A DNA stretch of 64,000 nucleotides, taken from the NCBI GenBank assembly GCA_000091205.1, contig AP006489.2, one strand, 5' to 3'. Made by a program: the position numbers and the translations under genes. Every line of letters begins with the position of its first letter. Within the stretch, counting starts at the first letter, position 1. Origin of the DNA: Cyanidioschyzon merolae (Eukaryota). Of the stretch, positions 3,285-63,233 are shown in pieces. The notes beneath the pieces were generated by a model. That model made no database searches. It was given only the letters and a program-made list of their open reading frames with translations, and was not told where the DNA came from.

Positions 3285-4709
3285 TTAGGGTTTGTAATAG
3301 TTCGTCTTAACGAATGGCATTTTGACTACTTCACCTGGCACAAGTTTTCCCCGAATTTTCACTGAAATACGCGTACCGACAGCGTCCATAGGCTTCGAGA
3401 TGTAACCCATACCAATAGCGCAGTTCCGTGTGGGGGAGAATCCTCCCGAAGTCACAGTACCGATCACGGCGTTATCGGCAGCTTTCGGTGAATTTTCGTG
3501 AATCGTTTCGTGTCCACGAGCTGGTGGTCCCCCGTGAAGGACAAAGCCTACTCTTTTCTTCTGCACGATACTTGGATTGGCAATCTCCTTGAGTATCACG
3601 TCTGCACCGAGGAACGAGGGCCGGCCATCACCGGAGTCTGGGTTGCGGCGAGACTTGGCAATCGTCCACGTTAAACCAGCGCTCACGGGCGTCGTGTTCT
3701 CATCAATATCGTTACCGTAGAGACAAAGGCCAGCTTCCATGCGCAGCGAGTCCCGTGCACCGAGACCACACGGAAGCACCGCTTCATTGGACACGAGCAT
3801 TTCGAAGAGCTTCGGCGCATCCTGATTGTGCACACTGATCTCAAAGCCGTCCTCTCCTGTATACCCGCAACGAGATACGAGCAAGTAATCAGAGAAAGCA
3901 GGTGCCTTGACCATCCGAGCATTCATGAACGCCATCTGCTCTAGGTTCAGTGTGCTTCGGTCGACAATATGCTGCAGTACCTGCATCGCTTTCGGGCCTT
4001 GAAGTGCCAGCAGCGAGCGATCCGCTAAAAACTCCAAGCGAACATCCATGCCGTCGACCTCGCGGGCGCGTCTCTCATGTGCTCGCAGGTGCGCCATGTC
4101 CTTATCGACACAGGCGCCATTGATCACCATATTCAGGGCTTCCGCCCCAGTATTGTCCTTTCCTAGGTTCGTAATGATCGTATCGTCAATGATACCTCCG
4201 TGCTCGTTCGTGAGTAGCGACAAAACCGCTGTACCCGCCGGGAGTGCCTGTAGATCCGCGACGATGAGTCTCTCGAGGAAGCGGACGCGGTCGGTGCCGT
4301 ACACGCGCACCTGCCCCATGTGCGAGACATCAAACACACCAGCCGACTGACGAACCTGCAAGTGCTCGTTTTTTATCCCGCCTTTCTCGCCAGAGTACAT
4401 CACTGGGAGCGCATAGCCTGCAAAGGGAACCATTTTGCCCCCGTACTTCAGGTGCGTCTCATACAGCGCGGTATGTTTGAGTTTCTCCTCAGGGCTCGGC
4501 TGCGTGGCGGACGTTGTGCTTGCCTGGCGGTAGCGCAAATGACCGTTTGCAATCCAATTCAACGGTGACAGACGCTTGTGCGTTTCGCCCCGCAACAGCG
4601 CTACCGGAGCACTTAGGCGGTGCCCAGGGTGCTTCCCCGCTACAAAACGCACTTCCGACGCACATACTGCGCTCAATTCAAGCCACCTGTTCAGAATCCG
4701 AGCTGCCAT
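3285..4709 (-). CDS. AMT: Aminomethyltransferase, the glycine cleavage system T protein, with a mitochondrial-type presequence.
   Basis: The 474-aa ORF carries GcvT hallmarks: 'TALYETHLKYGGKMVPFAGYALPVMY', 'GVFDVSHMGQ' and a conserved C-terminal barrel. The N-terminal ~80 aa are rich in R, S and A. Confidence 0.9.
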   Translation of the reverse strand: MAARILNRWLELSAVCASEVRFVAGKHPGHRLSAPVALLRGETHKRLSPLNWIANGHLRYRQASTTSATQPSPEEKLKHTALYETHLKYGGKMVPFAGYALPVMYSGEKGGIKNEHLQVRQSAGVFDVSHMGQVRVYGTDRVRFLERLIVADLQALPAGTAVLSLLTNEHGGIIDDTIITNLGKDNTGAEALNMVINGACVDKDMAHLRAHERRAREVDGMDVRLEFLADRSLLALQGPKAMQVLQHIVDRSTLNLEQMAFMNARMVKAPAFSDYLLVSRCGYTGEDGFEISVHNQDAPKLFEMLVSNEAVLPCGLGARDSLRMEAGLCLYGNDIDENTTPVSAGLTWTIAKSRRNPDSGDGRPSFLGADVILKEIANPSIVQKKRVGFVLHGGPPARGHETIHENSPKAADNAVIGTVTSGGFSPTRNCAIGMGYISKPMDAVGTRISVKIRGKLVPGEVVKMPFVKTNYYKP

Positions 4710-5247
4710 AGCGTATCAGATGACGAGAGGCTCCCCTAAGAAACCGAGCTCCCAGATAAAGCCCTTCTTTCCCAAGGTCCAGGGATGAGCAACGTTTCGT
4801 TGCACTAGAAACTTGCTGCAATGCGATGCAGCAGCAGCAGCGCCGTCTATGATCATTCTTAAGCCGCATCGCCGCTACCGTCTGGGGACGTGTTCGCACA
4901 ATCCCAGTGCAGAAGCCTGCCACGACGCACAGCAGAGTCTTTGGAGATAGCCAGATTCCTTCGGAAGGGCGCAGTGAACAGTTTTAGCTGGGCCTCCGTG
5001 TGTGGTCGGTGATACGCTGGTGACGCTACTCTAGCGTTTGCAGCGATACTAGTAGTGTCGGTGTTCGTGCCCGCGCCCCGTGCTGGAAACGGTGCAGGTC
5101 AACGGCCTCGAACGCGGTAGCGCGCAAAGGCTGGTGCTATTGCGCGAACGCATTCGAGGCAGACCCGTTGCTGTCTAAAACAGATCCTCAGGACGTCTCG
5201 TGCGCTTGGTAAATTCTGTGCTGCACGCATAGCGATGGCGTGGAGTC

Positions 5248-7305
5248 ATGGCCAGTGGCAGTGGAAGCGATGAGCGCGTGCCACTCTTGGGCGAACGTGG
5301 ACGGCCGACAGGCGCTGTGGCGGCTACAGCTGCCGAAACCGCTCATAGTCGTGATCCGGTTGGACGAGCTCAGAGCGATCGTGAGCGTGTTTGCCTTGCA
5401 AGTCGGGGTCGACGCGCTCACAGGCTCGACGAGTTGTGTTTCTGGCTGATATATGCCGTACTCCTGGTGGCTTCCATAGTCTGGGCGCTGATCAGCGCCA
5501 AGATGCGTGGACACCAACGACTGCAGGGAGAGCCTGTCGTGCCCGAGCCTGCGGTGGCGAATACTGAATCAGCATCGTTTTGCCAGGTCGGCAGTACTGG
5601 ATGGAATAAGCACCGCACACGTCTCGGTTGGTCATGTACCAGTGAGCTCCGGTCTCGCGTAACGCTTGGGCGCGCTGTCAGCCAGTCTGCGCCCCTATCC
5701 ATCCTTGAGAAGGTGAAATCAACCTGTCCAAACTGGCGACGGTTGCTCCAGTATCCGGCGCTATGTCGCCGCCAGGAGCGCTCTGTCTCAGGATGCGGCT
5801 CCTTCCTCTGGATAAGCGATTTGCATGTGGATTACTGGTTCGATCCTCGCGTGCCTCCGACGTTGTGTGGTGAACGCAAAGTCTGTCGCCCGGCGGAGCT
5901 CGTCTACAATGTGTCATCCCAGGTGCGCGATGCGAGCATTCCCAATAACCCTGCCGTGCCTGTGCGGGATGTAGCCACGACATATACCTACGGACGGCCC
6001 GGATGTGATCCTCCGCTGCCTCTCTTGGAGTCTTTGACGGAAGCGATGAAAAAGGTCGATAGTGATCCTGACTTTATTCTCATCACAGGTGATCTGGCTC
6101 CGCATGACCTGCCTTCTCGCGCATATGTGCTCAGGAGCCTCAATGCATCTGCGCAGCACCTTTCTGCAACTGTTTGCGGCGCGCTGGGCAACAGCGGTGA
6201 GTCTCAGCGACGGTCGCCAAGATGCATCGTAGTTGTCGGCAACGTCGATCTGTTTCCGACGTTGCACATACCTATAGAGGCGAAACCTGTGAGCTCCGCA
6301 GAACGCTATGATGCAGAGAACAATAATCAACCGGTGCGCTTTCGGGACCTGTACGAACTCTACGTTACCGCAGGCATTCTGGATCCAGAGAATGAGGCGC
6401 TGCGCAGATCGTTCACTGTGGGCGGATATTACAGAGCGTATGATGATGGCAAGCTGCGAGTTCTGGTATACAACTCTCTCCATTACATCGCTGGGAGGCT
6501 CTTCAGTTCAGCGAGTGCACTGAACAGAACGAATGCATCGCCCGCTTTGCCCTTCTACGCCCTGCCTTGTGAACAATGGAAGCAGGTGCTTCCAGATGCG
6601 GATGATCCTGCGGGCCAGTTTGCCTGGCTCGAGGAGGAATTGCAGGATGCTGAACAGAACGGACGATCCGTTTTCCTTGCTTCTCACATCGGACCGGGCA
6701 GTAAAACTGGTTCCCGGGCCTGGTGTGCACCCTATGTTACCCGCTTTGCGGACTTGTTGACCAAGTATGCAGACACAGTGACCATGCAGTTTTACGGTGA
6801 TTTATCTCGTGAAGAATTGCGCTTGATTGAGCCTTATGGTTCGCCGAATGGAACCAGCGAAATGCGAGGACTAGCTCTTCTCATCAATCCCGGACTTACA
6901 CCGAGACGGATGCCTGGTGGTGCGCCGACATTTCGCCACTGCTTCTTCGACCGCGGCATACACCGAGCGAAGCAGGTAGCTCAGCGAAGACGCGGTGACC
7001 ATGTGTTCGCACCGGTGACCTTGCTTGACTATCACGCGTATGCGTTTCCGCTTCAGCACACCGTGATAGAGCGAATGACTCGGGGCGCGAGCGCGCCTCA
7101 TCCCGAATGGCGCTGGCGGTACAGCTTTGCGGAACAGTTTTGTGTTCCGCACCTGTCGGCGTCGACGCTGCGTCAGGTCATTCAGAACATTGCATCGGAG
7201 CCCGAGTTCATGGAGGCCTACACCTTGCGCACGGAGGATGGCCTCGAGAGCGATCTCGACTTGAGCGCAGCAGTCGGAAGCCTTCGAGTCCAACCTGCTG
7301 CCTAA
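5248..7305 (+). CDS. Acid-sphingomyelinase-like phosphodiesterase, a calcineurin-like metallophosphoesterase, built as a type II membrane protein.
   Basis: The 685-aa ORF has an N-terminal TM anchor ('FWLIYAVLLVASIVWALI'). Metallophosphoesterase motifs are present: 'SDLHVDYW', 'ITGDLAPHD' and 'VVVGNVD'. The length and C-terminal region are ASM-like. Confidence 0.7.
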   Translation: MASGSGSDERVPLLGERGRPTGAVAATAAETAHSRDPVGRAQSDRERVCLASRGRRAHRLDELCFWLIYAVLLVASIVWALISAKMRGHQRLQGEPVVPEPAVANTESASFCQVGSTGWNKHRTRLGWSCTSELRSRVTLGRAVSQSAPLSILEKVKSTCPNWRRLLQYPALCRRQERSVSGCGSFLWISDLHVDYWFDPRVPPTLCGERKVCRPAELVYNVSSQVRDASIPNNPAVPVRDVATTYTYGRPGCDPPLPLLESLTEAMKKVDSDPDFILITGDLAPHDLPSRAYVLRSLNASAQHLSATVCGALGNSGESQRRSPRCIVVVGNVDLFPTLHIPIEAKPVSSAERYDAENNNQPVRFRDLYELYVTAGILDPENEALRRSFTVGGYYRAYDDGKLRVLVYNSLHYIAGRLFSSASALNRTNASPALPFYALPCEQWKQVLPDADDPAGQFAWLEEELQDAEQNGRSVFLASHIGPGSKTGSRAWCAPYVTRFADLLTKYADTVTMQFYGDLSREELRLIEPYGSPNGTSEMRGLALLINPGLTPRRMPGGAPTFRHCFFDRGIHRAKQVAQRRRGDHVFAPVTLLDYHAYAFPLQHTVIERMTRGASAPHPEWRWRYSFAEQFCVPHLSASTLRQVIQNIASEPEFMEAYTLRTEDGLESDLDLSAAVGSLRVQPAA

Positions 7306-8120
7306 GCGCAGCACTGGTATTCTCGCAGCATTCAACTAAGAGTTGCTGATGGTGTTGAAGGGCGGGTCTTTTTAGATGCCTTTACTGAGAGCAAGGCACC
7401 TTTTTCTCCAGATGCGCGGGTGCCAAGGGCCAGATGCCTGCCAGTTGAGCGGACCAGACTCGCTGCCACTTACCATAATCGAGCATTGAGGGGGGGTCGA
7501 GATGTCCGGACCGCCTTCACGGACGTATGGCTCGCTGCACCAGTGTCTACGCCTTGCTTTGGGAAGGTGCAATCCGTTCGCGGAGCGCTGCGCCACAGCG
7601 CTGGAAGTTGTGAAACACAACCAGGCTATATTGCTGGACGCCTTTGGCCATTTTTGGCTGCGTTGCCCTTTCTAAACTCATATCCGTCTTTGGAAAGAAC
7701 GTTCACATACCGCAACGGCCTCGACAAGGTCTTTCCGCACAATGCGATACATTGGAATGCATGCCGCCTCTTTCCTGTAGAGTGCACAAGTCCCAGAGAC
7801 TGTATATGAACGGAGGGAGTACCTACCAGGGAGCCATGTTCGCAGCGACGTCTCCTACGCGTACCATCTAGCGACAGCGCCTCAACAACGCACGTACCAT
7901 TCAGGTGTTGTCCCAACGCGGACGCCGATGACAGTGACTCGGTAATACTAGCATCGCCAGCGCTGCCACAACCAGCTCCACCACCAACACCACATGCATC
8001 GCAATGCCACGAACGCTGTGTAGATAAGGTGGCGCTCTATGCTAGTCGCAGCCGATGCTGCTTCTAGTTTCCGTGAGCGCAAGGCGCGCCCCCGTATACA
8101 CCGCTGCCGCTGGAACTGCA

Positions 8121-8330
8121 CAAAAATTGCCGTCGATGCATCGACATGTACCTTATTGATCGACATAAATAGAATTATGTGGAAATCATGGTCCATGCGC
8201 GCGCTGACTCGCCCCTAATCACTGCAAATTCCATGCTCGTCGATGCATCGACATGCAATCTTATCCGATTTATATACATAAATATACCTATATGTAAATC
8301 ATGGTCAACGCGCGTGCCGACATCAGGCAA
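8121..8330. repeat. AT-rich tandemly duplicated ~107-bp element, each copy containing the perfect 14-bp palindrome GTCGATGCATCGAC. It lies in the 5' flank of the 8336 gene.
   Basis: Direct reading: copy 1 spans about 8121-8215 and copy 2 about 8225-8330. The palindromes sit at 8132-8145 and 8239-8252. Local composition is AT-rich against a GC-rich background. Confidence 0.5.
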
Positions 8331-8335
8331 CGTCT

Positions 8336-9436
8336 TTGACGCTGCTCGAAACGCTCAGCATGAAGGCATATGATCTGTGGCCGTTCGAGACGACAGAGCT
8401 GTTTGCCCCGCTCGGTTCGTTGTGGACCTGCCTTATCATGGACTCTGGAGCGCACCGGTCGTTCTGGCGAGAGCGTGTTTGCAAGACGGCACCCATACCG
8501 CGGTGGCTCGCGCACGGCATCGATGCGTTGCTCATAGCGTTGGTAGTGATCGCTTTCGGGGCGATGCTCTCGGAAACAGCGCGCTCGGTGGCAGACCCAG
8601 CCTCAAGAGCCGTGCTCGCGCACACGGTGCGGCCAGCTATGGAGCATACGCTTTCTTCAGAGAGCATCTCGGGACGCTTGGAATCGTTCCGAAGCCTGTT
8701 CGCCGGAGTCTCTAATCGGTGCTGTCGCGCGGCGCTCGCACCAGGTCTGGCGAACGGTGTGTTGGGGCGCGTCCTGCCCAGGCAAAATGAGGGCGCGGTT
8801 GCTTTTCCTGGTAAGCAAACTGACGGATCGCGGCTCTCGAGTGCGGCGTCCGTTGTAACATGGCCACAAACGAGTTTTGTGCGGGCACTTTTAGAAAGCG
8901 TGGCTCGCCCTAACGAAGGTGCGGGATCTGCCGGGGACGATCGCCTTATAATAGCGTTTGTTCTATTCACCGTTTTCGTCTTACTGGCCCTGTACATTCT
9001 TGGCGTCTGTGGATCCCTCAGAAAATGCGGGTATGCCGCTTGGTTTGGTCTGATGCCATTTACGGGTCAGGTCGCTCTATGTGAAGCGGGCGGCAACGTG
9101 TGGCTCTGGGTCCTTCCCAGACTCTTCACCAATCCGCCGTTTTCAACAACAGCGAATGCAATCATATGCTATGGATTTGCAGTGTCTTTCTTGGGCAAGC
9201 GCGAACAAGATGAAGCAGGAGGTTTGGGCGCGCGGCCTGCGACGACATCGATTTGGGATGATTTTACGTGGAAAGCCTTCTGGCTCACAGTCGGTCTAGT
9301 GTTCTTTCCGTTCGTCTCTTTCCCTTTGGTTGCTTTGAGTGATTCACTCCAGTACGATGCATGCTATCGAGCACGCCTGGCGGAGAGGGTCAGGGCCGCG
9401 GCGCCCTCGGCGGGCGAATACATTGCCCTACCCTAG
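8336..9436 (+). CDS. Hypothetical multi-pass membrane protein
   Basis: The 366-aa ORF has several hydrophobic helices, for example 'LLIALVVIAFGAML', 'LIIAFVLFTVFVLLALYILGV' and 'FWLTVGLVFFPFVSFPLVAL'. The overlapping antisense ORF 8323..8997 has S/R/A-rich junk composition. No family was recognised. Confidence 0.35.
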   Translation: MTLLETLSMKAYDLWPFETTELFAPLGSLWTCLIMDSGAHRSFWRERVCKTAPIPRWLAHGIDALLIALVVIAFGAMLSETARSVADPASRAVLAHTVRPAMEHTLSSESISGRLESFRSLFAGVSNRCCRAALAPGLANGVLGRVLPRQNEGAVAFPGKQTDGSRLSSAASVVTWPQTSFVRALLESVARPNEGAGSAGDDRLIIAFVLFTVFVLLALYILGVCGSLRKCGYAAWFGLMPFTGQVALCEAGGNVWLWVLPRLFTNPPFSTTANAIICYGFAVSFLGKREQDEAGGLGARPATTSIWDDFTWKAFWLTVGLVFFPFVSFPLVALSDSLQYDACYRARLAERVRAAAPSAGEYIALP

Positions 9437-9855
9437 GCGGGTGCGCAGTCGTTACCGGCGTTCTGTTTCGGGCTCTCAAGCTGATGCCCACAATGCCATT
9501 CTGAAAAGATGCAGTCTGTGTAGGTCCACGACAGAGGCGAAGAGGCAAGCAGTTTCACTGCTAGCGTCTGAGGTAGACTCAATGGCCCAGGGTTCTCTGT
9601 GTCTTGAACTGGTTGCCGGTCTGGCGCTGGCTCTATGCATCGAGGCTACTCCGGCTCAAGAGACAGGATTGCCAGACGCAGGATCAGTGGCTGCCCACTC
9701 CAAGACGCCCCAGCTGGGGCTCCGCTCGAAGCGACGCATGCGCCTCTTTCGGGTACCAGCTGCACGACCATGGCGACGAAACGATCTTCGGCTAAGTACG
9801 ATGACGATTGTGACTCGCCGTGAATGTTTCGCTTAGCAACGAATCTATTCGGAAT

Positions 9856-12492
9856 CTAGAAACGTTCCTGGATAAAGAGGATCGGTTTCTTCGTACCGAG
9901 GCGCTCGGGTTGCCTCTGGACTTTGTGCATGGCCCGTCGAACACTCGCACCAAGGGCTGGATTCCCACAGAAAAAGATGCCTCTTTGTACGTCGTTGGAG
10001 AAGCCAGACACGCGATTGAACTGTTTCACCTGGATAATGTTCCCAAAAAGTCTTTCAAACTCGTACGGATCGCGCAGGTCCAACAAATCCTCGATGAACG
10101 TTTCAAAGCGGGGCCGTCCCTGGTGAAACTGCAGTATCGACTTGGTTGATTGGCCGGCTTCCAGGATGCTCGCAGGAATCTCGCCTCTCGTCAGAAATAT
10201 GTGTACCCGAACGCGCGGAATCAGGTCAGGAGTCCAGGTTTGCGCCAAGTCGAACAGGCCTTGAATACCCCACAGGTCCGCGTATTCGCGCACCACCCAG
10301 ACAAAAGTTAGACTGAACACGTTCGCATACAGACGCTGCTCCTGCTGCTCCTGCTGCTCCTGCTGCTCCTGCTGCTCCTGCTGCTCCTGCTGCTCCTGCT
10401 GCTCCTGCTGCTCCTGCTGCTCCTGCTGCTCCTGCTGCTCCTGCTGCTCCTGCTGCTCCTGCTGCTCCTGCTGCTCTACATGGGAGACCTTATCGTCGGA
10501 TTGGACGCACCGCTGCTGCGCCACAGCTGTCCCAAGACCGTTCCCCCTCCGCGAGAGCAAGGCGCTCGCTTTCCGTCCCAGATGACGCACGCGCCTCAGC
10601 TGGATACGCCACGGCCGCGGCAGATAGAAAATTCTGAGGGTCAGCGCAAACATGATACTTTTGATACAGAAGAGGACGAGGGCGATGATGCGCATCGCAT
10701 TCCCTGCGCCGTCCATATAATGCGACGAGTGTTGTTCGATGCCGAAGAGCGTTGCACCCACGACCAGGTCTGCAACGAGGAGTCCGCAAACACTCAGTGA
10801 TACAAAGCCGCGCGGGGTGCCGACGTAACGCCAGCGAGGCGGATCCAATGTCACCAGCATATCCGACGCAATCGTGAACGAGAAGAGAAAAAGAAGCACT
10901 GCCGAGCTGGTGAAATCCGCAACTAAGGCTACATTGGCATCGAATGCATTTGCGATGACATAAATCGTCAAGCTAATGTACAGCATCCAGAGCAGACTGA
11001 ACAGCCAGAGGCTACTCAATACAAAAGCCCGTAGTCGATCAATTCGCGTTTCCGTTTGGAATATTCCAACGCGCTCTTTCATGTACATCGAAAGGATGCC
11101 AGATTTCCGTATTCGATCCAGCAACTGTGCCGATGTTTCCTGTTTGCTCAGTGTATCGAGAGTCCCGTGCTGCGTTCCGGCCCTGATTCCTCGAATATCA
11201 TCATCGGACGCATCCGCGATGCCGGCCAATTTGGCGGGAGCACGAGCGCTACATATTTCCCGGAGTATGGAGACCATCGGGGTTGCACCAACGCCGCTTC
11301 CGATCAGCAACTGGTAGGGAAAGTGCAGATGGGACTGCGCCGGTGCTCCATACGGGCCTGCCAAGAGCACCCGGTACGCCTCGATTGTCGTCATACATAT
11401 CCGTTCAGGGGCCAAATCGAGGCCGTCCGCCGTTGTTGTCGCTGCTTCTGCCACTGCTGCTTCTGCAAGGCTGTGCAGCCTGCGAGTCCATTTGCCCACT
11501 GCCGCAATGTAGAACGTGATGCGATCCGAGTCGCATGACGGTGCGCTTGCGGCTGTGAACGGATGCCAAGCATCAGCGGGCATACCACACCCTTTGCGCG
11601 TGTCGATGATCATGATCTTGAAATACTGGCCCGGTAGGTAGACCGCGTTCCGTCGTTCAACGGAGAGCTTCACGATATTGGAGTTTGCCTGAGCCAGACT
11701 GAGCACCAGGATGCGCCGAGGAGTTACGGTCGCCCGGGAGAGCTGATACAAGCGGTCGATGATATAGAGGAATACCGGGCCTGCGAAGAAGTACACCGTC
11801 CAGGGCCGGCCGCCTCGCAAGCCGTGAAATACCAGACAGATGTATACCAGGACCGCAATCGGACGGTGCGTCCACCAGAACAGGCGGAACCATTTCCGGC
11901 GTACAGTTTCAACTCCAAAACCGAGCAAAGGAACCAGCAAAACCATGAGCACCACACCTGTGACAAAAAGCATGGTCGCTGGCAGTGCCGCTGGTCCCGT
12001 GAACAAACCGCCACGAAATACGAACACGCTCGCAGCGTAGTTGACGATCTGGGCGATGCCGTGAATCCAGCCGGTTGCGGCAAGTGACGTCCCTACGATG
12101 GTGTGCATGTCGGGTATCCATCGCTCCACACATAGCAGGTCGTAGAGAGGTGTGCGGTACAGAACCGTCGCTAGAGTGCGGTTTATCGTGAGCGGGAGGA
12201 CAAGCGAACAGAATGTGCACGCAAATCCCATGCCCCGTGCGATGGATCCCGCATACCGCAGGATACCACTGGGGCGCAAGTCGACGATAACGTAGCGTAC
12301 CCCGTAAGCAAAGAACCACGACATGGCACAGAAGAACAGGAGAACAATCGAGTACCAAAGCCCGTTTTCAACGAGGTGGATATTCCATATTTGCGTACGT
12401 TCCGTCAGGCTGGGATCGAGATTCGACTCGTTCTGTTTTGCTTTGTTCATCAGTATCGTACGAAAAACGCAGATGGAATAACCACAAGTCAA
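9856..12492 (-). CDS. NADPH oxidase / ferric-reductase family protein (NOX/Rboh-like). A ~330-aa insertion with four predicted TM helices plus a (QEQ)n tract lies inside the NADPH-binding domain.
   Basis: The 878-aa ORF has the ferric-reductase TM domain with His-containing helices. It has the FAD-binding 'HPFTAAS' and the NAD motif 'LLIGSGVGATP'. After the insertion the C-terminal NOX tail is 'FFCGNPALGASVRRA'. The insertion contains 4 hydrophobic helices and the QEQ tract. The reading frame stays open for ~1 kb, so coding is favoured over an intron. Confidence 0.85.
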   Translation of the reverse strand: MTCGYSICVFRTILMNKAKQNESNLDPSLTERTQIWNIHLVENGLWYSIVLLFFCAMSWFFAYGVRYVIVDLRPSGILRYAGSIARGMGFACTFCSLVLPLTINRTLATVLYRTPLYDLLCVERWIPDMHTIVGTSLAATGWIHGIAQIVNYAASVFVFRGGLFTGPAALPATMLFVTGVVLMVLLVPLLGFGVETVRRKWFRLFWWTHRPIAVLVYICLVFHGLRGGRPWTVYFFAGPVFLYIIDRLYQLSRATVTPRRILVLSLAQANSNIVKLSVERRNAVYLPGQYFKIMIIDTRKGCGMPADAWHPFTAASAPSCDSDRITFYIAAVGKWTRRLHSLAEAAVAEAATTTADGLDLAPERICMTTIEAYRVLLAGPYGAPAQSHLHFPYQLLIGSGVGATPMVSILREICSARAPAKLAGIADASDDDIRGIRAGTQHGTLDTLSKQETSAQLLDRIRKSGILSMYMKERVGIFQTETRIDRLRAFVLSSLWLFSLLWMLYISLTIYVIANAFDANVALVADFTSSAVLLFLFSFTIASDMLVTLDPPRWRYVGTPRGFVSLSVCGLLVADLVVGATLFGIEQHSSHYMDGAGNAMRIIALVLFCIKSIMFALTLRIFYLPRPWRIQLRRVRHLGRKASALLSRRGNGLGTAVAQQRCVQSDDKVSHVEQQEQQEQQEQQEQQEQQEQQEQQEQQEQQEQQEQQEQQEQQEQQEQRLYANVFSLTFVWVVREYADLWGIQGLFDLAQTWTPDLIPRVRVHIFLTRGEIPASILEAGQSTKSILQFHQGRPRFETFIEDLLDLRDPYEFERLFGNIIQVKQFNRVSGFSNDVQRGIFFCGNPALGASVRRAMHKVQRQPERLGTKKPILFIQERF
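10335..10476. repeat. In-frame 9-nt microsatellite (CTGCTCCTG)~15.8, encoding (QEQ)n inside the NOX CDS.
   Basis: A perfect 9-bp periodicity is visible over ~142 bp. On the minus strand it translates to QEQQEQQEQ. Confidence 0.9.
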
Positions 12493-13515
12493 GTCTCTTC
12501 GGCAGGTGAGCGAATCACGGACAAGTGCAGCGCCAGCGCACGTTGGGAACCAGGCTTATTCGCTGGTAGGCTCGCTCGTTGTCGCCTCGGAACAGATGCT
12601 GCAGCTCCGTCTCACCGGTTGACTACAGTCCTCCGGGCACCGTGCAACCTTCCTTTCCAAACAGTGCGTTGCCCGAACCACTTTTACTTGCTAGGCAGTG
12701 CGCTAAAGGCTTCTGCAGAGCTGGCTACCAACGGATGCTATAGACCGACGGCGCCAACTCAGCACCAGGCATCGCTGACGCATCATGCACTCCATCTAGA
12801 CAAACCTGCCACTGCAGCCTGTTGATTGCATGCCGCGGCGTATACACGCACGAGACATATACGCAAGCACCAGCTCATCTGTAGTACTGATGCGTCCATT
12901 GGAAACCTGGTAAGAGTCAACGATTCTGCATCACGAGAAGCTCGTCGTGTGGTATTGTCGGGAAGCGATCCGCTCAGATATGCCTATCGTAGGTAGCATG
13001 GTTTAGCGGCGATACCGCACCGTGGCGCTGCGCGGTGCGTGCAGCAACAGCGCCGCGGCACAAACGCATACGAACGCACTGCGGATCGCGTTTATCATTA
13101 CGTGCATGATGCGCAGCGCCAAACAAGTCTTTCCAAGTTTTCGTTACATGATTACGTCAAAGAGCGTGAGCCGAAGCTTTCGTGGAGTGTGCATATGCAC
13201 CAAGTGTATGCTCGCTGGGTTTTTCTTGAGCGGTCACGTCGCTGGTCAGCGTGCCGAGTCTGGGTGACGACTTTCACGATCTCGCACGTTGCACAGCAGC
13301 GTGTTCAAGTTGGAGAGACTTGCTGGTACTTTCCGTGTGTTTCGGTTGCCGGGCCGGAAAAGAAGCAAGCAGATTGCTCGCGGGCGCCTCGGTATACGCA
13401 ATAGGATCGCGCGCTCAAGTGGCAGCCTCCTCACAGTTAGTCTTCAACCGCGTGCCCTGAAAATTAGAACCCTTTGAGTAGGCGGTATGGAAACGCACAA
13501 AGTTCGATGATGCTC

Positions 13516-14727
13516 CTAGAATGCGTCTGTCGCCCAGAAAACATGTCGGTCCATTTCAGGCAGCGCCTGTTGTCCCGCATCCTGCTCAAGGAGTGCCCGA
13601 TACATATATCCGTGGTCTTCCGTCGTTTCGAGAACTGCCGATGATCCACCGATGAGTGGAAGCAGCGGCGCCGCTAGAACAGCGCAAACTTGACGAACGT
13701 CGGGCGAAACTGCCCTCGCGAGGAATGCATCAAGATAGAGGCCTGCTCGTTTGAGTCCACAAAGTCGAACAACGAACTCTCGCACATGAATGGCGTCTTC
13801 TCGTTTTTGGAGAATCGCGTAGGCTTCTTTCGTACGTGTCTGCAATCGAAAGGGCGTTAGATTCGCGTCATTCCATTCGGTGTCACCGCTTTCCGCCCGC
13901 ACCCATCTCTGCCAGTACGCCGGGTCATCGCGAACGATGCAGCCGTCAAACCTGGATGCGAACTCTGCGTACGCTTCCGAGCAGCGCTGAATTTCCACCT
14001 CGCTCCCCAAGGCCAATGTTTCAATATGATCGCGATGGGAATGTGCAACTTCTCGAACGACACGGACGAATTTTTGTGGGACTGAAATCCATCCAAGAGA
14101 GCGATACAGCGACTCGGAGCTGCTCGTATGCAAAAACGACAGCGCAAAACCAGCAGCTCGCATTCGGGTACTCGCCTCTTCGAGCAGTCGGGACGCAATG
14201 CCCTGTCTCCGGTACGCTGAAGCGACACTTACCTCGCCAATACCAGCCGCAGACACCGCTGATCCCTTGAGATAGACACGTCGTCGGAAGATTCGCAGCG
14301 AGCCAATAAACTTGTCCTGCTCTCCGACAGCGACGAGGATGTCTTCCGACAAACGTTCCACAGCGCCGGGATCGTTTTCGACATGTCTCAGAAAATATGA
14401 ACGAGGAGGCGCGGCAGTTCCCTTCGCGTCTTTGAAAACGCCGTAGACAAATTCCAACCAAGCTTCGAGTTCCTCGGAGCGGAGTCCACGGACTTGGTAG
14501 CTGGCCATGTTTAGTTGTAGCCTAGTCCAGGAACGCGAATAGACTTTCCACGGAGAGACGCGCTTTCGCCGGCACGTGTGTGTTGCCACAACCGGAGCCT
14601 CGCTGGAGGCGTTCACTGAGTGAGCCGCGCGGTAGCCCAGCGTCGTACAGCAGAACGCTGTTCGTGGGCCTCTCGTCTCCCTCATTCCGGTCGCGTCGCC
14701 ACTGGTCAATGTTCTAACCAGTGGCAA
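13516..14727 (-). CDS. GNAT-family N-acetyltransferase. The likely true start is the internal Met 'MASYQVRGL', giving ~330 aa.
   Basis: The acetyl-CoA binding motif 'YRRQGIASRLLEEA' (Q/RxxGxG/A) is present with the surrounding GNAT fold pattern. The N-terminal 70 aa of the ORF are low-complexity. Confidence 0.6.
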   Translation of the reverse strand: MPLVRTLTSGDATGMRETRGPRTAFCCTTLGYRAAHSVNASSEAPVVATHTCRRKRVSPWKVYSRSWTRLQLNMASYQVRGLRSEELEAWLEFVYGVFKDAKGTAAPPRSYFLRHVENDPGAVERLSEDILVAVGEQDKFIGSLRIFRRRVYLKGSAVSAAGIGEVSVASAYRRQGIASRLLEEASTRMRAAGFALSFLHTSSSESLYRSLGWISVPQKFVRVVREVAHSHRDHIETLALGSEVEIQRCSEAYAEFASRFDGCIVRDDPAYWQRWVRAESGDTEWNDANLTPFRLQTRTKEAYAILQKREDAIHVREFVVRLCGLKRAGLYLDAFLARAVSPDVRQVCAVLAAPLLPLIGGSSAVLETTEDHGYMYRALLEQDAGQQALPEMDRHVFWATDAF

Positions 14728-15079
14728 GAGTCTTCTACGGCTTTCTAGACCTCATTTCGTGTAGCAGGTTCCACGGCATTGCCTACCTCTGGATTTCGGA
14801 AATCATTGTACAAAAAGACACTTTACCCCCATGTCAGAATATCGTAGAAAGGGTCAACAGCGCTAAGTCGGCGAGCAATGCATAGTTTCGGTTTCTTCTC
14901 TCTATCATCAATACTAGCCATTGCGGGGTTTCTCAGCGACAGCTTCCTTTTTTTCCCTCTTGTCTCTGGCTTTAACCAGGTAAGGCTTTCCTTTTCCGTC
15001 AGCTCTATTCTGAGCAGTTGAACGACATGGATGGCATCGTTCAAGTTCAGGTTTCGCGACTTCCAACCGCTGTCGACAC

Positions 15080-15645
15080 GTTTCATGCACAGGCGAAAGT
15101 TGTGATCTACGCTTCGCTTGTCGGTGCCATATTCCTTGGACGCAACTTCGTTGCGCCTCCGTCGGTGATGACATTTGACGTTGGTGAGGTGTTCCTAGAT
15201 GTGCACCACACCTTCTCCTTCGAGGGCAACCCTGTGGTGCATGGACGTTTGCTTCATCACTCGGCACATGCCCTTGACGAGTACAGGAGGCGCCCCGAGT
15301 TCCGTGCTCCTTTTCCGCTCACGGTGCAGAACAATAAGATTTTGGGCTTCTTCTGAGCAATCACCTCAGCGAGTTCGTCGGATGCAGCAAGCGTACGCAT
15401 ACGCCGTTTCATTTGATACAGGATTTGTGGAATGCCATGCTGTCCATGATGAAACAACTACATATAGGATCATCCAGACTAGAGAACAATTCGAGAACAT
15501 TCGATCCGTCTGTTCTCCACTCGTACCGAGCGGTGAAGCACGCTTCATCAAGAGGAATCGCTCGGAAGCGTCAAGTACGAGTCCAAGACCCTTTTCCACG
15601 CAAACAGAAGCGAAGGAAGCCTCTGGGGGCATATACTCGAGTGAG
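15080..15645 (+). repeat. Interspersed repeat family B, copy 1 (~570 bp)
   Basis: This stretch is 75-80% identical at nucleotide level to 21040-21615, 41805-42365 and 53800-54380. Shared blocks include 'tttcatgcacaggc...', 'gcacatgcccttgac', 'caggatttgtggaatgc.atgctgt.catgatgaaacaa' and 'cctctggg.gcata'. ORFs within copies fall in inconsistent frames. Confidence 0.6.
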
Positions 15646-16646
15646 AACATGCTGCACTGGAATGCCGTTTCATTGATGGGCATATAGAGAGGAGTACTCG
15701 TCGTTCGAACGGAATCGATTATATGACGTGACGAGTTCAATGAACTCTCGGCATGAATTTGTGAACAATTCGCCTGATGACGACGTCGAGTTTTTCCCTT
15801 GCTAACCCGGCGATGATGTTGCCCGCACCTACGTGTTGCCGCGAAGCAGAAACATAGAGAACCTAAAGAATGCGGGAACTGGCATGCCAGCCTGTAGCAA
15901 GAAAGAGACGTCGCGACCTCTACATGTGAATAAGCTACTGGTATCGATCAATTTATGAAACCATGTTTGATAGCGGTGCGAATTATCATGATTCTGATGA
16001 TGGAACGAATGCCAGCGGAAAATTGCCGAGGGAGCCTCTCAGGGAAGGCGATTGGAAACCCAGAAGCTACATAGAAACCGCAAGCCCTCATCGATGCACT
16101 TTGATTGCACGGGCTGTTCATATTCAAACAGCTGCTGAAAATTTGGAAAGAAAGGAGCACGGCGAGCAGCTCACTTGTCCATTTTCATATGACATAGGTG
16201 TATGATCAAAACCCACCACTGAAAGACGAGTGATTCCGTTTCAGGAACCTCGCTCATGCGACCGACGCCAGCAAGCTCGCTCGCCCGAAGGCCAGTCTCG
16301 ATCCGGATGACAGGCGTCTCGAGGCGAACCCAAATTTGGCGACGCCCGCTCGATCCACCAGGGCCGACGTGCACGCATGCTCGCCGCTGCTGTACACGTG
16401 TCCCGCACGAGGTGACGCGAGCCAGGGATCCAATCGCCACGCGCATGCCGCGTAGCACCCGTGGATGCGAGGCCCTGCGCTGCTCCGGTCCCGAGCGGGC
16501 AAAAGATCATGGTATGGCTGCTGCTTGGATACGCGTTGAGCTGTAGCAATATCGTTCCGCTTCTTTCGCTCAAATTTTTCAGGTCTCAACGAAAAAGTCT
16601 TCAGTAGAGCTCCGAAGATAAAACGCCAAATTGCGGAAGCAGTCGT

Positions 16647-17258
16647 ATGTATGCAGGAATGCGTCTTAGAGTTGTCGCATTGCTCTTGATGCTCGTCACA
16701 TATCTGTGCGTTCCGAGTGCTGCGCTCGGTGTTGCCGCTGAGGATACGATTCAGGGCTCGCGTACCGTTCTCCGTGCTGCACCGGGCACAGAGTTTCGGA
16801 TTGGTGGCCCTGTCACGATCCAAAACATGACGATCGCTGCAAACTATCTCGTTGGAATCGAGGTGGCGCCAATGCCCCCGGGCATGCCAGATCCAGCGGC
16901 ACAAAATGTTGTGCATTTGGAGGCTGATGTGCACGCCACATCCACGAATCCCTGGGGATTCCCCAATGGATCCTGGATCCCGTACCTGAGCATTGTCTAC
17001 ACGATCAGCAAAGAGGGATCATCCTGGAGCGCCCGGGGTGTTCTCAGCCCTATGACTGCAGATGATGGCCCGCACTACGCCGACAGTCTGACACTTGCGG
17101 GTCCGGGTCGCTATGCGCTCATATACAAGCTCATTCCACCGCAAGTGAATGGTTTTCTAAGACACGTTGATCACGCGACTGGTGTGCCCGACTGGTGGAC
17201 GCCCTTCGAGGTGCCGTTCAACTTCACGTATCCGGTTGAAACAGCGTCAGCATCTTAA
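16647..17258 (+). CDS. Secreted P19/Ftp-family Fe2+ transport (Fe/Cu-binding) protein homolog, the periplasmic partner of FTR1 permeases in bacteria.
   Basis: The 203-aa ORF starts with a signal peptide, 'MRLRVVALLLMLVTYLCVPSAALG'. The motif 'HLEAD' (H-x-E-x-D) is followed by a Met exactly 46 residues after the His ('SPMTADDGPHY'). A His lies 7 residues after that Met, and a distal 'RHVDH' follows. This reproduces the remembered Cu/Fe ligand spacing of Campylobacter P19 (H42, E44, D46, M88, H95, H132). Confidence 0.75.
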   Translation: MYAGMRLRVVALLLMLVTYLCVPSAALGVAAEDTIQGSRTVLRAAPGTEFRIGGPVTIQNMTIAANYLVGIEVAPMPPGMPDPAAQNVVHLEADVHATSTNPWGFPNGSWIPYLSIVYTISKEGSSWSARGVLSPMTADDGPHYADSLTLAGPGRYALIYKLIPPQVNGFLRHVDHATGVPDWWTPFEVPFNFTYPVETASAS

Positions 17259-18124
17259 AACAATGGATTTCGAATGGAAGGATATCAACCTTAGTTCAAA
17301 GGGATAAGCATGCGATGCAGCGTTATCCGGCGCGTAAATCCTGAACGCGTTTCGTCCACAGTGCCAATGACTTCCGAAAGGATTCCCCGTGGTGGCCTGT
17401 TCGATGTGTAACATAAATGAACTGTGGAAGATGCCCCGGCACCGAGGCGCGCCAAATCACCAAACACCAACAAAACCGTCAACACCATGCCGTTCCTTGC
17501 GGGCAGCGGTCAACGAGGCACCACAACTATGGTGTCATAGCGGGAGCTACGTCGCGTTCAACGGTGCACGCACGAAAAAATATTCGGGCAAAAATGGATA
17601 GAGCTGTGGTGGAATGCCTGTTCAGGTACCGGCTCCATCTCGCACGGAAGGTACAACCAGAAAAGAAACTCTGGCAAGGCTCCCATGACATAAAGACGTA
17701 CAGGGGAATTGCTACTGCGCCCATGGTATCACTTGTAGCGCCGCCAGATTCCAGAGCGCGAGGCACGAGGGTTACCAGCATAGCCTGACTGTAGTCTCCG
17801 TGGCATCTATCGTGAGCGCGCCACAGCTCGTAAACCTTTAAACCCTGATACGATGCATGGGACCAAACACAAGTGCGCTACGGCGTCATTGTATCAAAGA
17901 GTTCAGACACTCATCAAAGTTCGCCTGTGCAAATGCAGATCACATGCTCGGATGTCGAACCGCGTGCTCGACCGTCTGAAGAGCACTGCTTTCTTCCACG
18001 AAATGCGCTGAAGCATTTAAACCTTTGCGAGTAGCTTCCGCGGCCCGATGCGCCCCAGGATCAAGACGATGACGCACTACGCTCCGGGCCGCTGCAACCT
18101 ACGTATATAACTAGGGCAGGCGAT

Positions 18125-18330
18125 GCGGCACACGGCAATGTCAACATCCCTTGAGCCGACGCCCTCTGTGGTACGGCAACGCCGTTGTGTCTCCGTGCAG
18201 CGACCGCACCGGTGCTATAGGCGCTATTGCTGTCGCTTTCGGCAGGCTCGGCACTCGATAGGACGTATGTAGCGACCAGAATATCCGAGACGAGGTATAG
18301 GTAATGTATCTTGGAGGTAGGGCGTTTGAT
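18125..18330 (-). repeat. Interspersed repeat family A, copy in reverse orientation
   Basis: The reverse complement aligns over ~140 bp with 35335-35480. The conserved core is 'aacggcgttgccgt.cca.agag.gcgtcggctc.a', and '...tgccgtgt' also matches. Confidence 0.55.
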
Positions 18331-19219
18331 GGATACCTCACCTCGCACTGAAAAAGACACAAAAAAGTAAGAAAAGAAAAATGCGCATAATCGGAGAACG
18401 CTGGCCTAAGTAACCGTTTTGTCAATGAAAACGTCAACATCCGCCTCCCTGCCGGCATCTATCGATCATGTCTGGTACAGCATCGTTGGCACCAGTTCTC
18501 CATGGAAATAAATCAAAGAATGATGATCCGGGAGCAAAGGCATCTGGGTCTTTCCTCAACGGATGCCGGGGCGGTAACGTCACCAAGCTCCAGCGGCAGA
18601 TACCGCGAGTGCATGCCGCAGCCGCATTAGAATGCTGTGCGAGCTGCGCAAAGTCACGAGGAGCCCTGGCAATCGACGCGCATGCTACCAACGCCGCACC
18701 TAGAGTTGCGGTGCAGTCAAGGCTCGGGAAACTTTGATTCGGCACTCTTGTTGCGCGGTATGACATTGGTGCTGTCGTGCCGGATGCATCACGACATCGA
18801 TGCGGGAATGCGTCATGCATCTGCAAGTTCGACGCTCGCGTCAAGCACAGCGCCAGGCTTTTGATAGTGAGTCGAGGCGCTTCTGGAGCGAACAATGGTT
18901 TTTTTTCTGTGAATAAATGAGCTGCTAGTTGCGTATATCGATGTGAATCGGAGCGCGCCATTCGCGGAACGCATGGTCAGCGTCTATGCTCCCAGTTCAC
19001 GCAGATGCTGATCCATAGTTATACATATATCTACATATATGAATCGTTTCGTGGATGAATACGGTTTGAGGCGGCATGCGCTGCAGCATCGCGTCGCACG
19101 CCTCTGTCCTGGCACCAACACTGGCGCAACTCTGTTCGCCATACCGTTGTGCTGTACTGACAGCTCCGCCGCGGGCGTCTACGAGCGTGACTGAGTCGCA
19201 CCGCTGCCGTGTATAACGC

Positions 19220-20578
19220 TTGCATCGAGACATGGTCAACACGGCGACCACAGAGTCGGCTCGACCCGAGTCGAGAGCGATTACTGCGGCGGAGCTCCCC
19301 GCGAAGCTTGAACAACTGCGCGCTGAAGCAGAGACCGGTGGCGACACGAAGCCCGTCATAGAGGCCCTGTACGCGTTGGAAAAGAAGTTCCGTTTGGCCG
19401 ATGATGCGAACGCTACAGCGCTGGTAGCTACTGAGATCGTTCGTCTTGCCTGGCAGCAAGGCCGAGTGCCCGCACTCGTAGAGCACCTGCGACTGCTCAG
19501 CCGTCGTCGGGCGCAGCTCAAGCAGGTTGTTGCGACGATCGTGCGCGAGGGAATGCAGTACCTCGATCGAATAAAAGATGTTGCGGAGAAACGTGAGCTG
19601 TTGGAAGTGCTGCGCGATATATCCATGGGGAAACTGTTCCTGGAACTGGAGCGTGCGCGTCTCACCAGAATGCTAGCCGAGCTCATGGAGCAAGCCGGAG
19701 ATATTAGTGGTGCCGGGCGTGTGCTGAACGAACTCCAGATTGAAACATTCGGAAGCATGGAGCGTCAGGAAAAATGGACTTTTATGCTGGAGCAGATCAG
19801 GCTCTGCCTTGATCTCGAGGACACTGTTCGCGCGCAGATTATTGCGAACAAGTTCACAGCCCGAACACTGGTCGACGAGGAGTTCAGGAAGAGCCCCATC
19901 AAGACTAGGTATTATATGCTGATGATTCGACTGTATACAATGCAGCAGCGTTTGAAGCTCGCGGACGACACCCGTTTCATTGATATTGCCAGGGCATACC
20001 TTGCGCTTGGGGAGGAATTCCTGGGCAACGCGGCGCTGTATACGATCCTTGCTCCCCGGAACCATGAGCAACACGATCTGCTGCATCGATTGTCCCAACG
20101 TCAGCCATTGCTCGAGAACAAATCACCGCTCCGTATATATGGCGAACTCCTGTCACTGTTCCGGATCGAAGAGCTTATCCGCTGGCCAATCTTCGTTCAA
20201 TCATACCGCAGTGCGCTGGAGGAGAAGCACCCGGACTTGAACTGGTTGTACTTGCAACGCCGTGTTCACGAGCACAATCTGCGAGTGATCGCCAAATATT
20301 ACCGACGGATTCATTTGTCTCGTTTGGCTGCGCTTATGGAAGTCGATGAGGATACCGTGGAAGATCTGCTCTGCGATGAGATAACGAGTGGACGGATATG
20401 GGGCCGCATCGATCGTATCGATGGTATCGTGAGTTTTCAAAGGGAACGAAAACCAGAGGAGATTGTCTCTGAATGGGCGCAAAACGTCGACGAGGTGCTC
20501 GCTTCTGTGGACCGTCTCGATGAGTTGGTGAACAAGGAACGTCAGCAACGGGCGGTGCCTACGAGCGGTACGAGCTGA
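19220..20578 (+). CDS. RPN5: 26S proteasome regulatory subunit Rpn5 (PSMD12), PCI domain
   Basis: The 452-aa ORF follows the Rpn5 pattern along its length: N-terminal TPR-like helices, then the PCI domain ('RVIAKYYRRIHLSRLAALMEVDEDTVEDLLCDEITSGRIWGRIDRIDGIVSF'). The length matches PSMD12. Confidence 0.9.
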   Translation: MHRDMVNTATTESARPESRAITAAELPAKLEQLRAEAETGGDTKPVIEALYALEKKFRLADDANATALVATEIVRLAWQQGRVPALVEHLRLLSRRRAQLKQVVATIVREGMQYLDRIKDVAEKRELLEVLRDISMGKLFLELERARLTRMLAELMEQAGDISGAGRVLNELQIETFGSMERQEKWTFMLEQIRLCLDLEDTVRAQIIANKFTARTLVDEEFRKSPIKTRYYMLMIRLYTMQQRLKLADDTRFIDIARAYLALGEEFLGNAALYTILAPRNHEQHDLLHRLSQRQPLLENKSPLRIYGELLSLFRIEELIRWPIFVQSYRSALEEKHPDLNWLYLQRRVHEHNLRVIAKYYRRIHLSRLAALMEVDEDTVEDLLCDEITSGRIWGRIDRIDGIVSFQRERKPEEIVSEWAQNVDEVLASVDRLDELVNKERQQRAVPTSGTS

Positions 20579-21039
20579 AACGCACTGCATCGTTTCATGC
20601 GTGTTGAAAACGCTCTGAGGAGCATTGGCATCAGGCATCTGGCTTACGTATCCCAGAATACATGCATCGTCTACGAAATCGACCTGGCGTCATGGAGTGT
20701 CCATCGAACTCGCGGCAGTCCAGTGTGCTGGATCCAGGAAGAAATGCATAGCACCAGGTCGAGAAGCTGTTGTTGTTGTTGTTGACATCAATCTGAGTCC
20801 ATGTCAGAGTGAAATGTACGAGGTCCTCTATTTCGGTCGTACGCAATAATGTTGGGGTCTATTCACGCTGTCATGAACACCAGACACTGTAGTATTTTTC
20901 TGCGGCTGCTTCGCGTATCTCGCTCCTTTATTCGGCTTTAAAAACGCTGGTCTCGCCTGTCCTTTCAGCTTCGTTCTGAACAGTCGAAGGATGTCAATGG
21001 CAGGATTACAATCCGGATTTTACAGTTTGCGGCTGCTGT

Positions 21040-21615
21040 TGACGCATTTCATTAACAGACAAAAATTGCTATTGACGCTTCGCTTGTTATTGTCATCCTC
21101 TTCGTATCCACCCTCGGTACGCCCTTCGATGCATTGACACACGACTATGATGCGTTTTTTTCGTATGTGTGTACGGAACCTCTCCTCCTCGAACGCTACG
21201 CTGTGAAACGTGGACGCTTCGTGTATCGCTCGAAACATGCGCTTGGCGGATACAGAAGGCCCTCATCGATACCATCCGTCGTTTTTGCACCTGGTGCTGT
21301 GTCCTACGATCATAGGCTTCTTCTGAGAAATGCCCTCGGCGAGTACGCTGTCCGCCGCTCACGCAAGCACGCGCTGTTCCATTCGACAGAGGATCTGTGG
21401 AACGCGAGATTGTCCATGAAAGGAAAATTACCCTATGGAAAATCCACACTGGAGATCAAACCGAGAAATATCGATTCGTCTACGCGACCCACTTGCAAAA
21501 AAAGTACCGCGTTATCCACTGGTAGCGATTACTGCGATGGCTCAAGTCCGAGTCCATGGCCCTTTACGATGCGGACGGGCGACAAAGAGCCCTCTGGGAG
21601 CATATCCCATCATAT
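21040..21615 (+). repeat. Interspersed repeat family B, copy 2
   Basis: Nucleotide similarity to 15080-15645 and 41805-42365. Matching blocks include 'gacgcttcgcttg', 'tgatcataggcttcttctgagaaatgccctcggcgagtacgc' and 'gaggatctgtggaacgcgagattgtccatgaaagg'. The same orientation holds for all copies. Confidence 0.6.
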
Positions 21616-24689: not shown

Positions 24690-24850
24690 AGCGTCATCAT
24701 CATCATCAGCGTTACTATCACCACCTTGGACATGTTGCCAATGTATTCATTCTCGTGTGTGTAGCGAATGCGCATTACGGTCACCATCGCCATCACCACC
24801 ACCATCATCAGCAGCAGCAGCAGGAGCAGCAGCAGCAATGATGTGAAAAA
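24690..24850. repeat. Imperfect trinucleotide repeat tract, (ATC/ACC/AGC)n mixture
   Basis: Runs of catcatcatcagc, caccaccaccatcatcagcagcagcagcaggagcagcagcagc are visible. The tract lies in the 3' flank shared by the convergent queF and queD genes. Confidence 0.5.
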
Positions 24851-29287: not shown

Positions 29288-29425
29288 CTGCACGATATTC
29301 ATGGTATCGAGATGTATGAACGCTCGATCATCGTTCTGCATGATATTCATGGTGTCGAGATTTATGAACGCTTGATCATCGTTCTGCACGATATCCATGG
29401 CGTCGAGTAGCACGAGCGCTTGCGT
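29288..29425. repeat. 48-bp minisatellite, ~2.8 copies
   Basis: 'ctgcacgatattcatggtatcgagatgtatgaacgctcgatcatcgtt' is repeated with a few substitutions (copy starts about 29288, 29336, 29384). Confidence 0.6.
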
Positions 29426-43093: not shown

Positions 43094-43128
43094 CACCACC
43101 ACCACCACCACCACCACCACCACCACCC
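43094..43128. repeat. (CCA)~11 microsatellite
   Basis: A perfect caccaccacc... run sits in an intergenic region. Spurious ORFs on both strands encode poly-P, poly-G, poly-W and poly-T. Confidence 0.8.
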
Positions 43129-63010: not shown

Positions 63011-63233
63011 AGTCAGTAAAACCGGTCTTTGACACCTTCACGATGAGAAAGACGACGTCTCGAAAATGCAGAGGCGTATCGTGCTCACACCTCGCTCGCC
63101 GGTGGACTAGCACGGCTGATGGTACGGGAGCCGGGGCGAACGTCGCATCTCCGGCCGGCGGTCGGTGGCTTGATCATCACCTGGCTCAGCGAGGTACAGC
63201 ATTGAGCATCTGAGCGGTTGTATGGTACTCTGG

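Follow-up and report, generated by a model that had tools for sequence, protein, structure and literature searches.

A NoxD-type NADPH oxidase/ferric reductase gene of Cyanidioschyzon merolae with a four-helix insert in its NADPH-binding domain and a length-variable EQQ repeat

Background

Four additional transmembrane (TM) helices were described in the NADPH oxidases (NOX) of Chondrus, Porphyra, Cyanidioschyzon merolae and a diatom by Hervé et al. 2006 (Curr Genet 49:190), as that work is cited in the legend to Figure 2 of PMC5016757. Kawahara et al. 2007 (PMC1940245), who named the class NoxD, located these helices 'between the 1st and 2nd NADPH-binding sub-regions' and described their function as unknown; the organisms that carry NoxD were without homologues of the NOX regulatory subunits. 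Zhang et al. 2013 (PMC3591440) defined a 'preNOX' group, in which His119 is absent and Thr178-Gly179 is kept (NOX2 numbering), and found the four-helix insert in stramenopiles and some Viridiplantae as well, so that the architecture alone is not diagnostic of taxon. Here we analyze a gene of this kind in a 64,000-nucleotide stretch of C. merolae DNA (assembly GCA_000091205.1, contig AP006489.2), referred to below as the window. The open reading frame (ORF) is very probably CMG089C, one of the two NOX/Rboh-like genes of C. merolae and a member of the NoxD/preNOX class, with a translated four-helix insert and a variable EQQ spacer. A preliminary description of the window had taken the four helices for a peculiarity of red-algal NOX; the trait is indeed published, and at the same position, but it is not exclusive to red algae (PMC3591440). 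Publication of the four-helix architecture goes back to 2006, and CMG089C itself appears in the 2013 dataset.

Gene identity and translation start

A single unbroken ORF occupies 9856..12492 on the minus strand and, with a TTG start under the bacterial code, would encode 878 amino acids (aa). Translation most likely begins at the first ATG (12450), for a product of 864 aa; this codon is favored because the host is eukaryotic and because the published CMG089C begins at the same ATG. On near-identical metagenome contigs, the gene is called either from the equivalent of this ATG or from an ATG two codons upstream, the latter being absent from the window. Residues are numbered throughout from the ATG at 12450. 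The coding sequence (CDS) of this NoxD-type NOX/ferric reductase is therefore taken as 9856..12450 (minus strand, as are all features of the gene given below), with the stop codon at 9856..9858, and corresponds to CMG089C. When the window protein was compared with the CMG089C entry in supplementary file 1 of Zhang et al. (PMC3591440), 399/399 residues were identical over the N-terminal part of the entry that was compared, whereas environmental relatives show one to three differences across the same 399-residue stretch. The entry, attributed to the Cyanidioschyzon merolae Genome Project, carries the flag "4 TMs". This exact match bears out the red-algal origin inferred in the preliminary description, and the DNA is presumably that of strain 10D, from which the Genome Project sequence was obtained. 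The second C. merolae gene, CMR353C, probably belongs to a paralogue group made up of homologues P0004, P0005 and P0034.

Domains and cofactor motifs

The assignment of this ORF to the NOX/ferric-reductase family, made in the preliminary description, is borne out by Pfam, by sequence matches to solved structures and by superposition of a structural model. Matches to PF01794, PF08022 and PF08030 were all above the Pfam cut-offs. The first of these marks the ferric-reductase TM domain of six helices (11725..12375, approximately aa 26-242), which is also delimited by alignment to NOX5 and by the helices of the model. The second marks the FAD (flavin adenine dinucleotide)-binding domain (11350..11718, approximately aa 245-367; E 1e-11), including the motif HPFT (11554..11565, aa 296-299). 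The PF08030 match covers only profile positions 5-28 of 156, and corresponds to the first NADPH-binding sub-region (11248..11319). This sub-region consists of a strand, the motif GSGVGATP (11278..11301, aa 384-391) and a helix that runs to REICS; in the model the strand spans residues 379-385 and the helix 386-403. The rest of the NADPH-binding domain (9859..10311, aa 714-864), located by alignment of homologues, begins with the strand LTFVWVV, contains FFCGNP (9958..9975, aa 826-831) and ends in ...ERF at the C-terminus. HPFT, GSGVGATP and FFCGNP had all been picked out in the preliminary description, and each was found at the residues given here.

The haem-ligating histidines are H116, H130, H195 and H209, which are near-invariant among 25 homologues and align with the haem histidines of NOX5. 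Among solved structures, NOX5, NOX2 and DUOX1 are closest in sequence (E 2e-18 to 1e-16). The protein has the features of the NOX/FRE superfamily, namely two His pairs (in TM3 and TM5), HPF[ST], GxGxxP and a C-terminal CG motif; this last aligns weakly with NOX5 and NOX2. Pfam detected no EF-hand and no NADPH_Ox domain in the CMG089C protein. The absence of these domains, together with four helices at the published site, the absence of His119 and the presence of Thr-Gly, places the protein in the NoxD/preNOX class.

Each of the two homologue searches covered at most 8000 word-sharing candidates, a set that low-complexity words may have crowded, and yielded few sequences. A full-length AlphaFold2 model, built on the resulting shallow alignment of 25 sequences, has a mean predicted local distance difference test score (pLDDT) of 74.4 and a predicted template modeling score (pTM) of 0.70. 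Its first long helix begins at residue 13, with some 12 poorly modeled residues ahead of it. The whole model superposes on NOX2 with a TM-score of 0.68 of the target, and its dehydrogenase domain superposes on that of csNOX5 with a TM-score of 0.75. Both alignments span the insert, and the split NADPH domain therefore folds in the model as a single canonical domain. A second and smaller Cyanidiales-specific insertion, DPYEFERLFGNIIQVKQFNRVSGFSND, is found at approximately aa 795-822 (window 9859..10050), just ahead of FFCGNP; it is kept among orthologues, and the pLDDT of the model is below 50 at residues 801-819.

The four-helix insert

The insert that splits the NADPH-binding domain extends over 10312..11247 (aa 402-713) and is bounded by the helix that follows GSGVGATP on one side and by the strand LTFVWVV on the other. 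It comprises a polar linker, four TM helices, a basic segment and the EQQ tract. An insertion of about 330 aa had been proposed at this point in the preliminary description; its presence was upheld, but its length is nearer 312 aa. Here 434 aa separate GxGxGxTP from xFCG, whereas a moss Rboh and an insert-free homologue from the MMETSP transcriptomes have 142-146 aa between these motifs and no hydrophobic peaks in the gap. Of the red-algal homologues retrieved for comparison, each has four such peaks there, apart from Porphyra with three at the threshold used.

Hydropathy was calculated by the Kyte-Doolittle method with a window of 19 residues. Four peaks of 2.0-2.2 were found (aa 481-499, 517-535, 550-568 and 585-603), and these coincide with four helices of the AlphaFold2 model (480-503, 505-534, 546-572 and 585-609) for which block pLDDT is mostly 82-96. 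Helix i1 (10942..11013, aa 480-503; hydropathy 2.03) carries the motif LWLF..LW, which is invariant in six Cyanidiales sequences. Helix i2 (10849..10938, aa 505-534; hydropathy 2.07) is separated from helix i3 (10735..10815, aa 546-572) by a predicted cytosolic loop with the invariant sequence PP.WRY....RG. After helix i4 (10624..10698, aa 585-609) come the invariant LPR.W and a stretch that is strongly basic. Lys plus Arg residues number 0 in both loops predicted to lie outside, 2 in the i2-i3 loop (with one further Arg at the start of i3) and 11 after i4. This distribution fits the positive-inside rule for a path that runs out-in-out-in, which would leave both ends of the insert in the cytosol. 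Thus hydropathy, model and charge pattern agree on four TM-grade helices within the NADPH domain, as had been claimed from the sequence alone.

The insert is coding sequence and not an intron, as judged from sequence conservation and the model: it is open and conserved in relatives whose identity is no more than 36-58%, and in the AlphaFold model the parts of the NADPH domain come together around it. The ORF remains open and alignable through the insert in Cyanidiococcus yangmingshanensis (58% identity), in homologue P0003 (54%) and in the paralogue group (36-37%). The helix-bearing segment, aa 466-628, has 30 columns that are invariant in the six Cyanidiales sequences, and the three motifs named above are among them. 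No donor-like site of the form GTRAGT was found anywhere in the CDS. That the insertion is not an unspliced intron, a point that the preliminary description had put forward for checking, is therefore supported at the level of sequence by conservation, open frames and the lack of such a site.

Several points weigh against the identification of the ORF as CMG089C with the class, insert and spacer described here. The two C. merolae Rboh proteins are given as 805 and 925 aa in supplementary file 3 of PMC9322803, the former being 59 aa shorter than the 864-aa ORF; no internal Met and no consensus intron accounts for this shortfall, and 59 is not a multiple of the repeat unit. Homology of the insert to those of other red algae is not demonstrable by profile comparison. 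The allele of 16 EQQ units is seen in the window sequence only. Finally, judging by sequence, the Gln or Leu at the position of His119, a proposed O2-site residue, and the H-x13-H spacing of TM5 suggest that superoxide production is not assured.

Oxidase or ferric reductase

The same architecture would serve a ferric-chelate (metal) reductase, with a different external acceptor, rather than a superoxide-generating oxidase. We consider this possible, though the less probable assignment for CMG089C. The sequence indicators for generation of reactive oxygen species (ROS) are mixed: the Thr-Gly pair and an Arg54 equivalent are present, and the His119 equivalent is absent. Residue Q134 is paired with the His of NOX5 that corresponds to His119 of NOX2, and VTGVV is paired with ITGVV of NOX2. 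At the His119 position there is Gln in the Cyanidiales orthologues, Leu in the paralogues and His in florideophyte NoxD as well as in NOX5. The spacing of the TM5 histidines is H-x13-H in all red-algal members, unlike the H-x12-H of NOX5 and Rboh. A spacing of 13 is that of yeast FRE and plant FRO. These two differences keep the metal-reductase assignment live for the Cyanidiales enzymes; neither the change at the His119 position nor the H-x13-H spacing was found in the literature searched. A classification in the same direction is argued in PMC4824067, where algal proteins without an NADPH_Ox domain are held to belong with FROs.

Several observations favor an oxidase instead. T164-G165 aligns with T178-G179 of NOX2, the TM4 pair that Zhang et al. 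(PMC3591440) regard as a mark of ROS generation, and the same authors count the preNOX of rhodophytes as probable ROS producers. In both sequence and fold, the top matches belong to NOX and not to FRE. Residue R72 (R86 in ORF numbering), which we take to be the equivalent of NOX2 Arg54 and which alignment to NOX5 supports as such, is invariant in the six Cyanidiales sequences.

The neighborhood of the gene also bears on this question. A gene for a P19-type Fe2+ transport protein (16647..17258, plus strand; PF10634, E 3e-49) is found at a distance of 4.2 kb from the start of the NOX gene, which could favor a role in iron reduction. It is not a syntenic neighbor in the related species that carries P0003, however; there, a kinesin gene fills the corresponding interval. 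An iron link through this neighbor was therefore rejected. In the window, a GNAT acetyltransferase gene (13516..14727, minus strand) lies between the two.

The EQQ repeat

A perfect 9-nt tandem repeat, GAGCAGCAG, is located at 10335..10476 (aa 659-705). Tandem Repeats Finder reported a period of 9, 15.8 copies and 100% matches, in agreement with the pure in-frame repeat of about 16 units noted previously. On the coding strand it reads (GAGCAGCAG)15 GAGCAG, or 15.67 units, and is translated in frame as (EQQ)15 EQ. An 18-mer of two units occurs 14 times in the repeat and once elsewhere in the window with one mismatch; the expectation from 100 shuffles was 0. The tract falls in the cytosolic return linker, after i4 and before the second strand, and in the model it forms part of a long helix (665-707) of moderate confidence. 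It is absent from every other homologue aligned.

The preliminary description had suggested that the repeat was likely to be a length-polymorphic coding tandem repeat, and its length does vary. Window 4328..22458 is matched at 99.2-99.3% identity by an 18-kb metagenome contig in ENA (k141 assembly). The gene on this contig departs in length only at the repeat, where exactly 108 nt (12 units) are deleted between identical flanks. Leaving aside the repeat and the start, which was called two codons further upstream, 9 of its codons differ. Altogether, seven environmental contigs, representing two flank haplotypes (HV and QA), have tracts of 24, 33 or 42 nt (2.67, 3.67 or 4.67 units); two of these contigs, L001 and L006, are 98.9-99.4% identical to the window. 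The EQQ tract is thus a length-polymorphic coding repeat with at least four alleles, counting that of the window, that differ by steps of 9 nt. This polymorphism was not found in the literature searched.

It might be objected that the length difference arose in assembly, through collapse of short reads or over-extension of the repeat in the window. Every short allele comes from a metagenome assembly, and the long one is attested by the window alone; short-read assembly would probably fail across long alleles. One contig, L008 (JGI 3300050748, Ga0506615_00745, locus 5869 onward), is 99.2% identical to the window up to the EQQ repeat, past which it carries unrelated genes (Cob_adeno_trans and Peptidase_M17) that are absent from the window, so that the product is cut to 681 aa. 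L008 is probably a chimeric assembly joined exactly at the repeat. We nevertheless regard an artifact as improbable. Three different short alleles are found on two flank haplotypes, and every difference in length is a whole number of 9-nt units between flanks that are identical. Moreover, the short tracts fall below both the read length and the assembler's final k-mer (k141 for contig L001), and single k-mers would therefore span the tract and both of its flanks.

Other short repeats are present in the window: (CAG)9.7 at 24809..24837, which holds the sole other near-match to the EQQ repeat unit, (CAC)11.3 at 43094..43127 (100% identity), and a 48-bp unit repeated 2.5 times at 29288..29407.

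Origin and possible role of the insert

When the insert alone was searched against 1.84 billion representative proteins, only Cyanidiales relatives were found, in two clusters. Profiles of the Cyanidiales inserts and of other red-algal inserts had no match in Pfam or among PDB sequences. The two profiles were also compared with each other by hhalign; the Cyanidiales profile matched the florideophyte/bangiophyte profile with a probability of 1.1% and an E-value of 0.047, which is not significant as evidence of a common origin; the two types of insert occupy the same loop and have the same number of helices. A model of the insert by itself has a pLDDT of 71 and yields fold matches to generic four-helix bundles only.

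The four helices could conceivably form a working module, either a built-in counterpart of p22phox that stabilizes the haem domain or a proton-conducting, voltage-sensor-like unit that compensates charge on an electrogenic oxidase. We think this decidedly doubtful. There are polar or charged residues within the helices that hint at such a role: in the middle of i3 there is a conserved Asp in orthologues and Asn in paralogues, and in the middle of i4 there is Lys597 in orthologues and His in paralogues. An alignment of the florideophyte/bangiophyte inserts (P0006, P0008-P0011, P0016, P0032, P0033, P0035, P0037 and P0038) has invariant Arg, Asp, Glu and Asp inside the helices. In the same alignment the end of the fourth helix is Arg-rich (WRIGRTIGSRV / VRLFRVIGERV), and looks like a voltage sensor, although searches of Pfam and PDB sequences lend no support to this. 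Voltage-sensor channels recur among the weak fold matches of the insert, none of them significant. Assignment of the Cyanidiales insert to a voltage-sensor or Hv1-like domain was not supported: such a domain would have a fourth helix with basic residues at every third position together with similarity to an Ion_trans or voltage-sensor profile, and the insert did not show this combination.

Genes of C. merolae are nearly without introns, which counts against the last alternative. That the insert of about 1 kb, or the repeat alone, is an unspliced intron or noncoding DNA that is open by chance is extremely unlikely: a listed protein that is 59 aa shorter than the ORF speaks for it, but in six Cyanidiales sequences, with identities as low as 30%, the insert is open, in frame and conserved as protein, it has invariant motifs and helices that obey the positive-inside rule, the CDS has no GTRAGT donor, and the repeat alleles are separated by multiples of 9 nt. 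A 177-nt intron as the source of the 59-aa gap was likewise rejected, since the seven GT..AG pairs at this distance are arbitrary and non-consensus.

Proposed mechanism and implications

By analogy with the family, cytosolic NADPH would reduce FAD, and electrons would cross the membrane by way of two haems, with H116/H130 and H195/H209 as ligands, to an acceptor outside, presumably O2, to give superoxide, or possibly Fe(III). The insert sits in the loop between the first beta-alpha unit of the NADPH fold and the second strand. Since both of its termini would stay cytosolic, the halves of the NADPH domain could come together in the usual fold. The helices likely anchor or dock the dehydrogenase lobe to the membrane domain in an enzyme that has neither EF-hands nor phox-type partners. 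The EQQ tract would be a spacer prone to replication slippage that varies between strains by multiples of 9 nt and is tolerated, but probably not functional.

For the most part this work confirms that a real and published peculiarity was recognized from raw sequence; the repeat polymorphism and the difference at the His119 position are small additions. The repeat is a simple strain marker, and the tracts of 8 to 47 residues seen so far amount to a natural experiment on the linker length that a split NADPH domain will tolerate. C. merolae is genetically tractable, and CMG089C would thus be a convenient place to probe the role of the helices and the capacity of Cyanidiales enzymes that have no His119 equivalent to make superoxide.

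Other repeats in the window

Two longer tandem repeats were found elsewhere in the window. One, at 54996..55565 (187 bp repeated 3.0 times, 98% identity), lies just upstream of a 328-aa ORF (55540..56526) and overlaps its start; the other is at 63233..63543 (166 bp repeated 1.9 times, 97% identity).

Comparison with known systems

The closest described system is NoxD of Chondrus crispus and Porphyra yezoensis (Hervé et al. 2006; PMC1940245), which forms part of preNOX (PMC3591440). CMG089C shares with it the six-helix bis-haem domain, the FAD and NADPH domains and the lack of EF-hands, and likewise has four extra predicted helices between the first and second NADPH-binding sub-regions. There are distinct differences. 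The gap from GxGxGxTP to xFCG is approximately 400-434 aa in Cyanidiales but 558-634 aa in those Gracilaria, Agarophyton and Porphyra homologues in which the motif search succeeded. The Cyanidiales insert has no detectable sequence similarity to the florideophyte/bangiophyte inserts, CMG089C has Gln rather than the His of florideophyte NoxD at the NOX2 His119 position, and the (EQQ)n tract is found in CMG089C only.

With NOX5, NOX2 and DUOX1 (8u85, 8wej and 7d3f; csNOX5, 5o0t and 5o0x), the protein shares the TM and dehydrogenase folds, the four haem histidines, HPFT, GxGxxP, the C-terminal CG and the terminal Phe. In contrast to these enzymes it has no EF-hands, no peroxidase domain and no known partner; it carries approximately 290 extra residues in a loop whose length is small in NOX2 and moderate in NOX5, and has H-x13-H in TM5 in place of the H-x12-H of NOX5. 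p22phox, the four-helix partner of NOX1-4, offers a functional analogy in that it likewise supplies four membrane helices to a NOX core. Plant FRO and yeast FRE belong to the same superfamily and have the same domain order, and plant and protist members of the FRE type have also been reported with extra TM helices inside the NADPH-binding domain (PMC3591440). CMG089C differs from FRO and FRE in that its best sequence and structure matches are to NOX, and in that the TM4 Thr-Gly of the NOX group is present.

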